From IMG/VR virus record IMGVR_UViG_2671180770_000009: 4,059 bases of DNA; one strand, written 5' to 3'. Shown here one piece after another: positions 96 to 4,059 of this stretch; the stretch's first letter is position 1; each line of letters opens with the position of its first letter. Both the position numbers and the translations under genes were made by a program. This stretch comes from a virus (lineage: Duplodnaviria; Heunggongvirae; Uroviricota; Caudoviricetes). The notes under the pieces are model-generated. The model was not told the DNA's origin, searched no databases, and worked only from the letters and a program-made list of their open reading frames with translations.

Positions 96-172
96 TGTAG
101 ATTGATCCAGTAATTCCCTCAGAATTGCATATCAATTTGCTTAGAGTCCCCGGCGGCCACCGGGGATTTTTT
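96..172 (+). ncRNA. oop: OOP-like antisense small RNA, antisense to the 3' end of cII
   Basis: Plus-strand segment gtagattgatccagtaat...ctcagaa resembles the lambda oop RNA as I recall it, and ends in a GC-rich hairpin plus T-run inside the cII 3' coding end. Position and antisense orientation relative to cII and O match lambda oop. The 5' end is estimated from the putative -10. Confidence 0.55.
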
Positions 173-415
173 CTTTGTGATTTCATCAAGCGCATACTTA
201 AAAGCCCTGCTAATCGGACTGATGTCTGATGCCATTCCGAAAGCACACAAGACCGAAGCAATAAATCTCCAGTCCGTTCTGCTTATCTTCGATTCATGAC
301 AGCCAATCATCTTTGCCAGACCGCGCTGGGTAAGCGTTGACAGGTTGATGAGTAAATCAGTTTCAGCGCGATCAATTTCTCGCTGTGATAGTTTGCTGTA
401 ACTTGTTTGTTCCAT
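119..415 (-). CDS. cII: CII-like transcriptional activator (lysogeny establishment)
   Basis: 98-aa ORF. C-terminal KKKSPVAAGDSKQIDMQF closely parallels the lambda CII C-terminus KKRPAATERSEQIQMEF as I recall it, and length is similar to lambda CII (97 aa). Gene order cro-cII-O is conserved, and the region upstream of the ATG (ggaaatcttaagaaATG) resembles the lambda cII translation initiation region. Confidence 0.85.
   Translation of the reverse strand: MEQTSYSKLSQREIDRAETDLLINLSTLTQRGLAKMIGCHESKISRTDWRFIASVLCAFGMASDISPISRAFKYALDEITKKKSPVAAGDSKQIDMQF
147..175 (+). terminator. Rho-independent terminator of the oop-like RNA
   Basis: Stem tccccgg (147..153) / ccgggga (160..166), 6-nt loop, followed by TTTTTTCTTT (167..176). 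The T-run is on the plus strand only, so it does not terminate cII transcription. Confidence 0.6.
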
Positions 416-553: not shown

Positions 554-787
554 TTATGCAGCCGATGCTCTACGCGATACGAACACTAGGTTTTCCTTTT
601 TCACAGGTTTATAACCCGTGAAATTACGAGTAGCTTCTTCGATTGCATTCGCTTTATCAGGGGAAGCTCTTCGAAATCCATATGCAATCTGGTCAAGATA
701 GCCAACTGAAGTTTTCGCTAATGCGGCGAGTCGCTTCCATTCCTCACTAGAAGCCTCTTTTCGCCAGCGTAGTAGTTCATTACTCAT
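554..787 (-). CDS. cro: Cro-like HTH DNA-binding regulator
   Basis: 77-aa ORF transcribed divergently from the CI-like gene, with a GGAGG Shine-Dalgarno (complement of 793..797) 5 nt before the ATG. A helix-turn-helix-like segment (LAALAKTSVGYLDQIAYG) is present. No similarity to lambda or P22 Cro that I can recall, so the call rests on position and HTH. Confidence 0.7.
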   Translation of the reverse strand: MSNELLRWRKEASSEEWKRLAALAKTSVGYLDQIAYGFRRASPDKANAIEEATRNFTGYKPVKKENLVFVSRRASAA

Positions 788-900: not shown

Positions 901-1605
901 ATGGAAAACAAAGATATTCGCAAATCGAATCTGGCGTTTTTGCTAGATGAGCATAAAAAAATCGCGGGTAACACTAATGCAAGCTTTGCCGATAAGCTTG
1001 GGGTTAGCCCTTCTCAACTCACGCAAGTCTCCGGTGAAAAAAGCACTCGAAACATAGGGGATAAACTAGCAAGAAAATTTGAAGCCGCGCTTGGGTTACC
1101 TAATGGGTGGCTTGATTTGGTACATGATGTAACACCAATTGCATCATGCTCAGATTCTTTAACTTTTGTCGGTCAGGTAAGAAAAGGGTTAGTGCGCGTG
1201 GTTGGTGAGGCAATTCTTGGTGTTGATGGTGCCATCGAGATGACCGAAGAGCGCGATGGGTGGCTCAAAATTTATAGCGATGATCCAGATGCCTTTGGTC
1301 TTCGTGTGAAAGGAGACAGCATGTGGCCCAGAATAAAATCAGGAGAATATGTACTCATTGAGCCTAACACCAAAGTATTCCCGGGTGATGAGGTGTTTGT
1401 CAGAACCGTTGAAGGACACAACATGATTAAGGTTCTTGGCTATGACAGAGATGGAGAATACCAATTTACAAGCATTAACCAGGATCACAGGCCTATAACG
1501 TTGCCTTATCATCAAGTAGCAAAGGTGGAGTATGTAGCTGGTATTCTGAAGCAATCTCGCCATCTGGATGACATCGAGGCAAGGGAGTGGCTGAAAAGTT
1601 CGTGA
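901..1605 (+). CDS. cI: CI-like prophage repressor (N-terminal HTH_XRE domain, C-terminal S24/LexA-type peptidase domain)
   Basis: 234-aa ORF. N-terminal HTH (NASFADKLGVSPSQLTQV). The C-terminal domain carries the S24 catalytic serine motif GDSM (Ser139) and a downstream lysine (MIKVLG, Lys177), and FGLRVKGDSM aligns with LexA FLLRVSGMSM. Divergent from cro with operators between. Confidence 0.9.
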   Translation: MENKDIRKSNLAFLLDEHKKIAGNTNASFADKLGVSPSQLTQVSGEKSTRNIGDKLARKFEAALGLPNGWLDLVHDVTPIASCSDSLTFVGQVRKGLVRVVGEAILGVDGAIEMTEERDGWLKIYSDDPDAFGLRVKGDSMWPRIKSGEYVLIEPNTKVFPGDEVFVRTVEGHNMIKVLGYDRDGEYQFTSINQDHRPITLPYHQVAKVEYVAGILKQSRHLDDIEAREWLKSS

Positions 1606-1665: not shown

Positions 1666-2007
1666 ATGGCGTTCACTGACCTTGAATATCAAGCGGTCAA
1701 AAAAGAAGTTCACCAATTCATTGAAAGCATAAGGCCGCCTGAACATATCCGCAATGAACTGGATATTGTTTATAGCATCAATGACCAAACGATAGATATC
1801 GGCGAACAGCGCCCCGTGTGGCAGGGCAACCCAGGTGAAACAAACATCCTGCCATCAGCAAGAATCAAGTACATACGTTCTCTGGATAGATGGAAAATCT
1901 ATTGGATGCGGAAGGATATGAAATGGCATCAGTACAGTACTGAACTTTCGCTGACTGATGCGCTTGAGCTTGTGCGTGCTGACCCGGATTGCTGCTTCTT
2001 CGGATGA
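1666..2007 (+). CDS. DUF3024-like small protein (function unknown), first gene of the accessory cassette
   Basis: 113-aa ORF with a strong Shine-Dalgarno GAGGAGG (1653..1659) 6 nt before the ATG. It contains a WKIYW motif and a C-terminal CCFFG; from memory this matches Pfam DUF3024 (conserved WKI motif), which needs an HMM search to confirm. No terminator between the cI stop (1605) and this gene. Confidence 0.8.
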   Translation: MAFTDLEYQAVKKEVHQFIESIRPPEHIRNELDIVYSINDQTIDIGEQRPVWQGNPGETNILPSARIKYIRSLDRWKIYWMRKDMKWHQYSTELSLTDALELVRADPDCCFFG

Positions 2008-2077
2008 GTGAAGAGACGTTTGGATGATGGATGATCGCAGAGATGCTCGTAGAGCATACAGCGATGCAGGAGAATTT

Positions 2078-2512
2078 ATGGCACTTAATTTAGAAAGAAT
2101 ATCTTTTATAACCCCATTTGATAGCAGCGAAGAACCCAACCAACCGACGCTTAATTTTACATGCAATGAATTTCCTGCGCGGCTATCAATTGATTTCAGG
2201 GTTGGTATGATCGGGTTGAAACCAAATTCAAGATATAATTTGGGTATTATGGTAATCCCCGCGCACCTAATTATAAAAAAAGGTGAGGAAATTCAATTCC
2301 CTGACGGCTCTTCGGAATCAGTTTCACTTTTCATCGATACGAAAGATAGCCATTTTGAAACAGGGGTTGGCGGACAGGTAATAGTAACATTGAAAGAAAT
2401 TAGGGTCCCAGCTAAAGGGCTGTATAGTGTTATAGGGATATTGCAAGATAATGAAGACCCTAAAAATGAACTTCATAAAAATGAATCATTTTTCACCGTA
2501 GAGCTATTATGA
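2078..2512 (+). CDS. Hypothetical protein (about 144 aa, no recognisable domain), accessory cassette gene 2
   Basis: Open frame 2024..2512. Preferred start is ATG 2078 because AGGAG (2068..2072) sits 5 nt upstream; the ATG doublet at 2024/2027 has only a weak SD. Visibly AT-richer than the flanking phage core genes. Predicted soluble, no obvious TM segment. Its stop TGA overlaps the next ATG (ATGA at 2509..2512). Confidence 0.65.
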   Translation: MALNLERISFITPFDSSEEPNQPTLNFTCNEFPARLSIDFRVGMIGLKPNSRYNLGIMVIPAHLIIKKGEEIQFPDGSSESVSLFIDTKDSHFETGVGGQVIVTLKEIRVPAKGLYSVIGILQDNEDPKNELHKNESFFTVELL

Positions 2513-2661
2513 GTGACGACAGTAATTTAAATAATCATGGAAAGCAAGACGCCAACATATCTGAAAGCCGGAGGTTGAAGGTTGTTGGCGGTTCCGATTT
2601 TGAGGCTGAATTTGATAATTCTCCCACCAAGGTGCAAAATAATTACATAAAACCGCCATAA
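2509..2661 (+). CDS. Small hydrophilic ORF (50 aa), translationally coupled to the upstream gene
   Basis: ATG 2509 overlaps the upstream stop as ATGA. It translates as MSDDSNLNNHGKQDANISESRRLKVVGGSDFEAEFDNSPTKVQNNYIKPP and stops at TAA 2659..2661, 12 nt before the next gene's start. Not in the ORF track, presumably because of a length cutoff. No independent SD, so coding status is uncertain. Confidence 0.35.
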   Translation: MSDDSNLNNHGKQDANISESRRLKVVGGSDFEAEFDNSPTKVQNNYIKPP

Positions 2662-2673
2662 ACGGAGGAAGAA

Positions 2674-3129
2674 GTGGGAACGATCAGCAGAGAGGAACTT
2701 GATGCTCGCTTAGCTGCTAATAAAGCAGAGATGGAGTCTATTGCTTCTTCCATTAGGGCTGACATGGCTCTATCTCGTGAAAGCGTTAATGTCCAATTTG
2801 CATCACTTAATGCAGCCATAAGCTCTCTATCGTCCAAGATCGATGGAAAGATGGATAGCGCTGCTGGCGATATAAAAGCAATTAATGGGAGATTCGAAGG
2901 AATTCAAGGACAAATAACAGGGGTTAATACCGCAATTAGTGGTGTTCAGTCGGGTATTTCTATACGATTAGCCATTTTTAGTGTCATTATCGCTGTAATA
3001 GTTGCGATTCCCGGGCTGGTATCAGCTTTAAAGTCAGACCACGCACCTTTGCAACAGCCTTCCACTTTGCAAGCGCCGCCACAAAATACCCAGCCAACAG
3101 ACAACAAAAAAATCACTCCCCAGCATTAA
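2674..3129 (+). CDS. Tail-anchored coiled-coil membrane protein (single C-terminal TM helix, Pro/Gln-rich tail), accessory cassette gene 4
   Basis: 151-aa ORF from GTG 2674 (the first start codon after the in-frame stop at 2659..2661), with a strong SD GGAGG (2664..2668) 5 nt upstream. N-terminal about 95 aa are Ala/Ser/Ile-rich with a heptad-like pattern. A hydrophobic helix RLAIFSVIIAVIVAIPGLVSAL (about nt 2965..3030) is followed by a polar tail PLQQPSTLQAPPQNTQPTDNKKITPQH. Followed by an intrinsic terminator. Confidence 0.75.
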   Translation: MGTISREELDARLAANKAEMESIASSIRADMALSRESVNVQFASLNAAISSLSSKIDGKMDSAAGDIKAINGRFEGIQGQITGVNTAISGVQSGISIRLAIFSVIIAVIVAIPGLVSALKSDHAPLQQPSTLQAPPQNTQPTDNKKITPQH

Positions 3130-3137
3130 CGCATTAA

Positions 3138-3163
3138 CCCGGCCTCAGCGCCGGGTTTTCTTT
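3138..3163 (+). terminator. Rho-independent terminator ending the cI-cassette operon (t_imm analogue)
   Basis: Stem cccggc (3138..3143) / gccggg (3150..3155), 6-nt loop ctcagc, followed by TTTTCTTT (3156..3163), 9 nt after the stop of the membrane-protein gene. Confidence 0.7.
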
Positions 3164-3339: not shown

Positions 3340-3395
3340 AGAATTTATCATTTTGCTATTGCCATTAATTTATCATTCCGATAAAGCTCACCCAT
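3340..3395 (+). promoter_or_regulatory. OL/pL-like operator-promoter region
   Basis: Perfect 17-bp palindrome TTTATCATTCCGATAAA (3369..3385) and related site TTTATCATTTTGCTATT (3344..3360) share the TTTATC half-site with the OR sites. Candidate pL: -35 TTGCCA (3359..3364) with -10 GATAAA/ATAAAG (3380..3386) at 15-16 bp spacing, overlapped by the palindrome. About 65-70 nt upstream of the nutL boxB, as expected for pL. Confidence 0.4.
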
Positions 3396-3455
3396 CAGCA
3401 GGACGCACTACTCACCAGGGCGGTGAATATACAACGATTCGAATATGAATCTACG

Positions 3456-3470
3456 GCGCTGACAAAGCGC
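3456..3470 (+). promoter_or_regulatory. nutL boxB RNA hairpin (P22-type)
   Basis: GCGCTGACAAAGCGC is a perfect 5-bp stem with a GACAA pentaloop, identical to the P22 boxB sequence as I recall it. It lies 166 nt upstream of the N-like gene start, on the same strand. No convincing boxA (CGCTCTT-like) in the preceding 80 nt. Confidence 0.65.
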
Positions 3471-3635
3471 AATAACCAAAGTGAACTTTGGGGTGTGGTG
3501 AAGGGTTCATGGACGGGAATATGTCGCACGTAAAGCGGCGAGGCCTGCGGGACTATTGCCGAATTGAAGTAGGCCGAAACAGGTCGAAATGGGTCTCCCA
3601 CCTACCACACCACCAAAGTTCATCAGGAGGTCTAT

Positions 3636-3974
3636 ATGACACGCAGAACTCAGTTCAAAGGCAATTCACGTTCTCGTCGTCGTGAGCGTTTAAAGGTAAA
3701 GGCATTAGCTAACGGCGTACTGGCCCGCGAAGAAGCAATAAGTTCAGAAGTATTACACCGCCCTACTCTAAGCAGAGCGCAGATTCAGGCTAAAGGTACT
3801 CACGAAACGCCTGAGCGTATAGAAGACGCTAAGCCAATTAAGTTCATGGCACAGGACGTGATCTGGCAACAGAAAGAATACAGACGCAATCTGGAGCGAG
3901 CGGCCATTGTGTACGCGAATGAGTTTGGACATAAGCAACCAGAAACTGGTGTATGTCTTGGCTTTGTTGAATAA
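3636..3974 (+). CDS. N: N-like transcription antitermination protein (arginine-rich motif)
   Basis: 112-aa ORF with SD AGGAGG (3625..3630) 5 nt before the ATG. N-terminal arginine-rich motif TRRTQFKGNSRSRRRERLK resembles the P22 gp24 ARM (GNAKTRRHERRRK, from memory). Position downstream of OL/pL/nutL on the cI strand matches lambda N. Confidence 0.75.
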   Translation: MTRRTQFKGNSRSRRRERLKVKALANGVLAREEAISSEVLHRPTLSRAQIQAKGTHETPERIEDAKPIKFMAQDVIWQQKEYRRNLERAAIVYANEFGHKQPETGVCLGFVE

Positions 3975-4059
3975 ATCGAACTTTTGCTGAGTTGAAGGAT
4001 CAGATCACGCATCCTCCCGACAACACAGACCATTCCGTGGCAAAGCAAAAGTTCAGAAT
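3975..4059 (+). other. Conserved N-distal region, resembling the lambda sequence downstream of N (tL1 neighbourhood)
   Basis: ttgaaggatcagatcacgcatcctcccgacaac...ccgtggcaaagcaaaagttca is nearly identical, from memory, to a lambda segment found downstream of N in pL-based vectors. Recollection only, not verified by alignment. Confidence 0.35.

Follow-up and report, generated by a model that had tools for sequence, protein, structure and literature searches.

Introduction

The stem in the N leader of phage lambda, on the transcript that starts at promoter pL, is an established substrate of RNase III. Its processing was reportedly mapped by Steege in 1987, and the regulatory role of that processing is said to have been described by Kameyama in 1991 and by Wilson in 1997, 2002 and 2004.

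In lambda, RNase III positively regulates N expression (PMC9032294), and rnc70, a mutant enzyme that is defective in cleavage but competent in binding, still affects N regulation (PMC8708148). The N protein, together with Nus factors at NutL, represses N translation over approximately 200 nt of 'highly structured' RNA (PMC5725501). Steege (1987) is the source that PMC5371410 cites for the mapping of N-leader processing.

Other systems are instructive for comparison. In the ribosomal RNA (rrn) operons of Escherichia coli, boxC lies in the 5' strand of the leader-trailer helix that is cut by RNase III, boxA and boxC are 18-19 nt apart, and the antitermination complex has been proposed to hold boxC until the trailer emerges (PMC10250234). 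The RNase III sites of lambda cIII, lambda sib and the T7 early region likewise consist of approximately two turns of double-stranded RNA within an mRNA and control translation or stability. RNase P of E. coli cleaves hairpin-like phage RNAs, the phi80-induced M3 RNA among them (PMC5499578), and is strongly inhibited when the 5' leader of a substrate pairs with its RCCA end (PMC10731613).

Here, we describe an inverted repeat in the N leader of a lambdoid phage and compare it with these systems.

The locus

The stretch of DNA analysed (4,059 nt; hereafter 'the window') is a lambdoid immunity region that reads in the same direction as the lambda leftward strand. Its features are as follows.

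119-415, minus strand: cII-like gene
554-787, minus strand: cro-like gene
901-1605, plus strand: LexA/S24-type repressor gene (Pfam)
1666-3129: four accessory ORFs, after the repressor gene and before the terminator that precedes pL
3136-3157: terminator upstream of the pL region
3394, plus strand: inferred 5' end of the pL transcript, ATCAGCAGGACGCAC, identical to the lambda pL RNA start
3404-3412, plus strand: nutL boxA-like CGCACTACT, the putative nutL boxA of HK106, in which this sequence is identical
3436-3451, plus strand: spacer hairpin GATTC-GAATAT-GAATC in the boxA-boxB interval, predicted in every fold
3456-3470, plus strand: nutL boxB GCGCT-GACAA-AGCGC, following the HK106 annotation; a hairpin in all folds
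3476-3481, plus strand: segment 1, an upstream copy of the 3'-arm CCAAAG, five bases past boxB
3481-3500, plus strand: 5' arm of the long-range helix, comprising base helix CTTTGG (3486-3491) and upper GGTGTGGTG with a boxC-like GGUGUGG
3501-3602, plus strand: type-A cargo (102 nt), with a hairpin at 3504-3554 and, towards the 3' side, two small ones
3603-3623, plus strand: 3' arm of the long-range helix, comprising TACCACACC, bulged A3612, CCAAAGTTCA and U3623
3625-3630, plus strand: N Shine-Dalgarno sequence (SD) AGGAGG, read directly from the sequence
3636-3959, plus strand: N gene of the H-19B/933W/HK97 type, starting with ATG 3636 and truncated at its 3' end

The record of HK106 annotates the base equivalent to window position 3394 (position 605 of locus L001; L numbers are our handles for the loci compared) as the 5' end of the pL transcript. 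The boxB of P22 nutL is the same as that of the window. The spacer hairpin is probably the counterpart of the 'reducer' dyad of H-19B, reportedly described by Neely and Friedman in 2000.

The four accessory ORFs occupy the position of lambda rexAB; one of them is annotated as DUF3024 in RefSeq genomes, and the product of 2674-3129 is hydrophobic over a stretch close to the C terminus and has no more than a weak Pfam match. No intrinsic terminator (a GC-rich hairpin followed by a U run) was found between 3158 and 3937, and a terminator reading of the repeat was rejected on this ground.

N is 99-100% identical to its counterparts in 933W and HK97, with a weak match to Pfam N_peptide. The gene is cut off by the end of an IS903B-like element (IS5 family; GGCTTTGTTGAATAAATCG..., 3960-4059): matches to intact prophages and E. 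coli genomes end at 3959, and the N frame enters the insertion sequence and stops at 3974. Read from this junction, N of the source DNA is probably defective owing to the insertion.

A long-range helix next to the N Shine-Dalgarno sequence

The original prediction placed the arms of a long-range inverted repeat at 3484-3499 and 3604-3620, as a stem of about 16 bp with one bulge that closes a domain of about 100 nt and ends 4 nt before the N SD. The repeat is real and, in part, larger than that: positions 3481-3500 pair with 3603-3623 in 20 pairs, two of them G.U, so that the single bulge stands while the arms had been drawn too short. Its parts, from the outside inwards, are listed below.

3481 and 3623, plus strand: outermost pair, G3481.U3623
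3482-3491 with 3613-3622, plus strand: lower helix, TGAACTTTGG / CCAAAGTTCA
3612, plus strand: bulged A in the 3' arm
3492-3500 with 3603-3611, plus strand: upper helix, GGTGTGGTG / TACCACACC

The helix encloses 102 nt (3501-3602). The distance from the end of the 3' arm to AGGAGG is 1-2 nt rather than 4. The order of boxB, helix, SD and ATG in the pL transcript is that of the lambda-type position.

Chance does not readily account for such a pairing. Among 500 dinucleotide shuffles of the leader (3393-3635), the best long-range stem had 11.1 +/- 1.4 pairs on average and 18 at most, and none reached 20. The fold z-scores were -4.2 for 3440-3640 (the interval for which a structure prediction had been suggested), -4.0 for 3393-3640 and -4.7 for 3481-3623, and the helix dominates both the minimum-free-energy (MFE) and the centroid folds of all three intervals. 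The inverted repeat is an RNA structure of the N leader that abuts the N SD.

Relationship to the lambda N-leader stem

In the N leader of lambda, the corresponding segment between boxB and the N SD is GGCTTTGGGGTGTGTG...CACACACCACCAAAGCT, which folds alike; CTTTGGGGTGTG / CACACCACCAAAG are common to both phages. The likeness extends to the transcript, the position, the base helix CUUUGG / CCAAAG and the bulged A, to a nearly identical upper helix (GGUGUG.. / ..CACACC), to the spacing from boxB and SD, which is similar, and to an upstream complementary copy that lambda has too. The interior of approximately 102 nt is, in contrast, unrelated in sequence to that of lambda, and the nut site and N protein of the window are of H-19B/933W/HK97 specificity. 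Judged by sequence and position, the helix is a homologue of the lambda stem that RNase III processes. The element had been thought analogous to that of lambda but differently built; this description has to be revised, since the two elements have a homologous base and the difference is confined to the interior. Cleavage and regulation are known from lambda and would be shared by the window phage.

The P22 leader has GGUUUGG-ACUGGCG ... CGCCAGU-A-CCAAAGCC, and its gene 24 protein is unrelated in sequence.

Conservation and covariation

We gathered approximately 306 N loci, representing four specificities, from phage entries in GenBank, from IMG/VR and from species-representative genomes; a scan of one genome per species for N relatives contributed 4 loci, which were useful ones. 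The base helix, a one-base purine bulge and the upper helix are found together in 249 of these approximately 306 loci, and helix-bearing leaders occur in lambda, H-19B/933W/HK97, epsilon34, P22, phi80 and Klebsiella/Enterobacter prophages. Detection by the outermost predicted pair was dropped because extra predicted outer pairs confounded it. The anchored detection used instead requires the base helix and three upper pairs and is biased at those positions; the covariation on which we rely is that of the four outer flanking pairs and upper pairs 4-8, which lie outside the detection rule.

Because the interiors are not alignable, fixed-length segments of the 5' and 3' arms were joined by an artificial AAAA linker in an alignment (A2) of 43 distinct rows. 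In these 43 distinct arm pairs, 88.5% of cells are paired, as against 36-45% when the 3' partner is slid, and both sides have changed in 15 of the 20 pairs; none of 500 shuffles matches the observed values. The covariation expected of homologous N leaders is thus present, with compensatory changes in three-quarters of the pairs among approximately 250 leaders. G.U cells outnumber A.C cells by 28 to 0 in the outer 15 pairs and by 35 to 7 in 18 pairs, and the constraint therefore acts on the plus-strand RNA, that is, the N mRNA, and not on the DNA or an antisense transcript. With 20 pairs, the helix forms approximately two turns of conserved, covariation-supported double-stranded RNA, as expected of a lambda-type element.

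Spacing is conserved as well. In 75 of 86 distinct leaders, boxB and the base helix are separated by 15 or 18 nt, and CCAAAG and the SD by 6-9 nt, while the length of the interior varies between 38 and 216 nt; in 56 of the 86, the SD begins exactly 6 nt past CCAAAG. The same layout is found in phi80, PA2, Enterobacter prophages and Klebsiella prophages, the N identity of the last being only 50%, while most phi80-type N genes are without the element.

UUUGG/CCAAA and the bulged purine are near-invariant, which exceeds the loose requirements of RNase III and hints at an additional constraint on the core, for example another factor or a requirement of cargo exchange. The bulged core is not obligatory, because locus L239 and 21 similar loci with lambda-type N (22 loci) have an unbulged perfect stem, GCTTTGAGTAGCGCG/CGCGTTACTCAAAGC, and L164 has a short hairpin only, TTTGGTGGTGG/CCACCACCAAA, with a small ORF inserted ahead of it within the N leader.

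A competing local hairpin

The upstream copy of CCAAAG (3476-3481) can pair with CTTTGG (3486-3491) over a TGAA loop. The resulting local hairpin is part of the MFE and centroid structures of the nascent leader before the 3' arm is included, and the long-range helix supplants it in the full leader. It is present in 76 of the 86 distinct leaders, which come from only a few flank lineages, and is shared by the lambda, H-19B/epsilon34 and P22 lineages and by the leaders that hold the tRNA-like cargo described below; phi80 and Klebsiella leaders do not have it. The hairpin covaries (CCAAAC/GTTTGG in P22; CCGAAG/CTTCGG in L320), and in P22, L320, L316 and L323 the long-range base helix is mismatched while the local hairpin is perfect. 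The two compensatory events, in P22 and L320, are suggestive only.

Exchangeable interiors

The interiors enclosed by the helix, here called cargo, form at least 17 clusters that are unrelated to one another and measure 27-216 nt. The module of the window (3487-3618) recurs at 91-97% identity in phi80, PA2 and Louie, where the flanks are unrelated or lambda-like. Chimeras are found: Louie combines lambda flanks with type-A cargo, as do L284 and L311, and L286 combines lambda flanks with type-E cargo. In type A, compensatory changes occur in the closing helix, and the hairpin at 3504-3554 has 15 one-sided changes that are compatible with pairing and 0 that break a pair. Of 5,426 complete E. coli genomes, 499 (approximately 9%) carry the module, at a median of one copy per genome and unannotated throughout.

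The core helix and its spacings are constant while the insert has been replaced repeatedly, a pattern that argues for regulation by the geometry rather than by the insert.

Rfam scans found no match in 3394-3640 (E up to 10) and, in the other cargo types (21 related loci; E up to 1), nothing but a sub-threshold tmRNA match in L213. Several cargos deserve separate mention. Type E is 216 nt long, GC-rich and composed of multiple hairpins; it occurs with H-19B-type and lambda-type flanks (L041, L051, L054, L059, L068 and L084, at approximately 1050-1185 of each, and L286), and Rfam and tRNA scans of it are without match. In L058, types E and A stand in tandem (776-1000 and 1053-1181), each followed by an SD and the first N codons, an arrangement that by its sequence looks like the outcome of unequal crossing-over. 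L213 (43-135 and 258-421), like L058, has two complete stem-plus-cargo units in tandem with differing cargos; the second unit is unnecessary for bringing nutL near the ribosome-binding site.

The motif [G/A]TGAA[G/T] stands just above the 5' arm in unrelated cargos (types A and E, clusters 1, 2, 3, 6, 11 and 15, and Klebsiella; TGAAG at 3499-3503 of the window) and could reflect shared ancestry at an exchange boundary or a functional internal-loop motif. The cargo of L214 (cluster 10) contains AGCTAGTTGGTGAGGTAATGGCTCACCAAGGCGACGA, which presumably resembles a stretch of 16S rRNA, although an Rfam scan gave no small-subunit rRNA match.

In PA2 (L092) and PA2-like phages, the nutL region resembles that of phi80 and the type-A module (701-832) is present, but no N gene follows. 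Downstream, in regions 889-964 and 989-1076 of L092, lie an isrK-family RNA (58.7 bits) and a C4 antisense RNA (77.1 bits), the latter an immunity RNA module in the style of P1/P7.

tRNA-like cargo

In L213 (55-125), L108 (1141-1216) and nine contigs (L316-L324), the stem wraps a 71-nt tRNA-like RNA in which an acceptor helix of 7 bp, a GG-containing D loop and a reduced anticodon arm are combined with the canonical T arm CUGG-UUCGAUU-CCAG. ARAGORN calls it a tRNA, and the predicted cloverleaf is stacked on the base helix. The sequence of its acceptor helix, discriminator A and CCA is that of the window upper helix, A3612 and the start of CCAAAG, and the acceptor stem has a compensatory change between contexts (G2-C71 / A2-U71). 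This unit always lies directly 5' of an SD and a gene for a protein with an Arg/Lys-rich N terminus. Cargo of cluster 3 ends in a perfect T arm, GATGG-TTCGACT-CCATC, that adjoins the 3' strand.

In the window, an acceptor-like arrangement is likewise present: GGTGTGG (3492-3498) pairs with CCACACC (3605-3611), followed by A3612 and CCA (3613-3615), the CCA being paired with 3489-3491. Inside the type-A cargo, the nearest candidate for a T arm is a 4-bp stem with a 7-nt loop, UGGG-UCUCCCA-CCUA, in which there is no T-loop motif, and ARAGORN and the Rfam tRNA and tmRNA models are negative. A tRNA-like nature of the window cargo itself is not supported, given the absent T loop and the absent model match.

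Alternative readings

That tRNA-like cargos share the stem suggests another enzymology, in which the stem would mimic a tRNA acceptor (GGUGUGG/CCACACC as acceptor, the bulged purine as discriminator and the first three bases of CCAAAG as the CCA end) and be processed mainly by RNase P and tRNA 3'-end enzymes, not RNase III. Phage substrates of RNase P (M3, P1/P7 C4 and P4 CI RNAs) and the tRNA-like domains of tmRNA and related RNAs have in common with the element a helix that starts with G-C and a purine-CCA, and some cargos are clearly tRNA-like with a T arm. The canonical T arm, ARAGORN call and cloverleaf of the 71-nt cargo and the T arm of cluster 3 that abuts the 3' strand speak for this reading; 41 of the 43 arm pairs retain G(+1)-C(72), the bulge is always a purine, and phi80, which induces the M3 RNA that RNase P cuts, has a type-A module. 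Yet the lambda stem is a substrate of RNase III, N(-1) is G and not U, and the 'CCA' is CCU or CCC in L316, L320, L321 and L323. The window, being of type A, differs from the RNase P substrates and tRNA-like domains in that its cargo has no T-loop sequence and no match to tRNA, tmRNA or Rfam models, and in that its RCCA is paired with the leader (C3613 and C3614 with G3491 and G3490) instead of single-stranded next to an unpaired leader, a pairing of the kind that strongly inhibits RNase P (PMC10731613). We regard this reading as unlikely. The same low weight goes to the idea that the stem is purely a translational operator or insulator that occludes or positions the ribosome-binding site and protects the 5' region of the mRNA, with no nuclease involved. 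The conserved distance of 1-2 nt between helix and SD fits such a role, as does the finding with rnc70 in lambda that binding can suffice, without cutting, to affect N regulation (PMC8708148), but it would be left unexplained why the double-stranded RNA is regular, spans approximately two turns and is conserved at its central core, as befits an RNase III substrate, and RNase III does act on the lambda leader (PMC9032294, PMC5371410).

Readings at the level of DNA or protein fare far worse. The inverted repeats bound a module of approximately 130 bp that recurs between unrelated flanks and in the 499 E. coli genomes, as would a MITE-like element with terminal inverted repeats that had inserted in the N leader; against this, target-site duplications or direct repeats are absent and the flanks continue the inverted repeat, the median is one copy per genome, and a single site has accommodated 17 or more different interiors. 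The arms, moreover, covary in the manner of RNA, the outer 15 pairs containing G.U cells and none of A.C, and each locus examined individually (outside the E. coli genome set) is in a pL-type leader or directly 5' of an N-like gene. We consider an insertion of this kind very improbable and rejected it on these grounds. Equally remote, and rejected because there is no sign of coding, is a small protein from the ORF at 3488-3685 (plus strand) or that at 3395-3601 (minus strand). ORFs of 65 and 68 codons do exist, and two phage records annotate a 44-codon 'hypothetical protein' at the position; however, neither ORF has a Pfam match, the plus-strand ORF begins at a TTG codon without a recognisable SD before it, stops or a frameshift shorten it to 14-44 codons in relatives that share the interior (phi80, PA2, Louie, L039 and L069), 12 of 15 amino-acid-level differences between its variants are nonsynonymous, and the other interior types are unrelated in sequence and have lengths that are not multiples of three. 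The minus-strand ORF runs antisense to the leader through nutL and pL and is absent from other interior types, although it stays open inside the element in the variants examined. Both ORFs had been suspected of being artefacts of the structured RNA; this view is reasonable. The plus-strand ORF, which is clearly not conserved, is best read as a by-product of that structure, and the minus-strand ORF likewise has no positive support.

Proposed function

Homology, conserved geometry and covariation together make the lambda mechanism the best explanation of the element. We think it probable that the 20-bp helix of the pL transcript, which bounds a domain of 102 nt lying between nutL and the N ribosome-binding site, works by a lambda-like mechanism. 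By analogy, the intact helix would end 1-2 nt from the SD and fold out the intervening RNA, so that a complex of N and Nus factors on nutL would stand approximately 15 nt away from one of the helix strands, and the SD approximately 6 nt away from the other. The proximity of nutL to the ribosome-binding site would hinder the entry of ribosomes, and N would thereby repress its own translation. RNase III would bind or cut near the centre of the helix, in the conserved core CUUUGG|GG / CC-A-CCAAAG; a cut would separate nutL from the N coding RNA, and translation of N would rise. If cutting raises N translation, N synthesis would follow the cellular level of RNase III. The interior would be dispensable cargo that is looped out and released after the cut.

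The local hairpins at the RNase III sites of lambda cIII, lambda sib and the T7 early region differ from this long-range helix with its exchangeable insert and its coupling to nut. A closer parallel for its folding is the boxB-boxA-boxC array of E. coli rrn, in which a GU-rich boxC strand (rrn UCUGUGUGGG; window GGGGUGUGGU) likewise stands at a fixed short distance and pairs with a distant 3' strand around a looped cargo to form an RNase III substrate (PMC10250234); the rrn cargo, however, is 16S rRNA, as against varied RNA of 27-216 nt, and the window element stands directly before the ribosome-binding site of an mRNA. From the boxC-like 5' arm and its fixed distance from boxB, we infer that formation of the helix is probably assisted in the manner of the rRNA leader-trailer helix. 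The transcription complex bound at nut would keep the boxC-like 5' arm at a set distance while the 3' arm has yet to appear; meanwhile, the 5' arm would be covered by the local hairpin with the upstream CCAAAG copy. Assisted folding would account for the tolerance of any cargo.

A more tentative proposal, to which we assign a rather low probability, is that the base helix and bulged purine form a portable processing cassette before N-like antiterminators that excises functional phage small RNAs, of at least 17 cargo types including tRNA-like ones, under the control of the nut complex and of a gate of alternative pairing among three segments. Were this so, the excised RNAs would carry tRNA-like G1...C72-purine-CC ends, and the unplaced phi80-induced M3 RNA, an RNase P substrate, would be one candidate; it is possible that the type-A module of phi80 is that RNA.

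Literature

Searches of the literature for RNase III together with 933W, H-19B, HK97 and phi80 returned no description of the element outside lambda, and a text search for 'N leader' had no matches. A string search with the sequence of the element matched one paper, on a 933W mouse model, in which it is probably a primer, and the text of a preprint on the Pas sRNA does not contain the N leader. The EHEC prophage sRNAs AgvB and AsxR were considered as relatives and rejected, as they lie downstream of PR' and are unrelated. Apparently undescribed in the searchable literature are the core common to the lambda, P22, phi80, H-19B, epsilon34 and Klebsiella types, the turnover of cargo, the tRNA-like cargo and the competing hairpin; parts of this may have been noted in older papers, such as comparisons of the N regions of lambda, phage 21 and P22.

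Implications

The fixed geometry with its changing cargo is a natural experiment, and it opens the possibility that the inserts are cut out as small RNAs. In lambdoid development N acts as the first switch, and the Shiga-toxin phages 933W and H-19B carry exactly this leader. If the stem works as that of lambda does, N synthesis, prophage induction and toxin release would be tied to RNase III and, through it, to the growth state of the cell.
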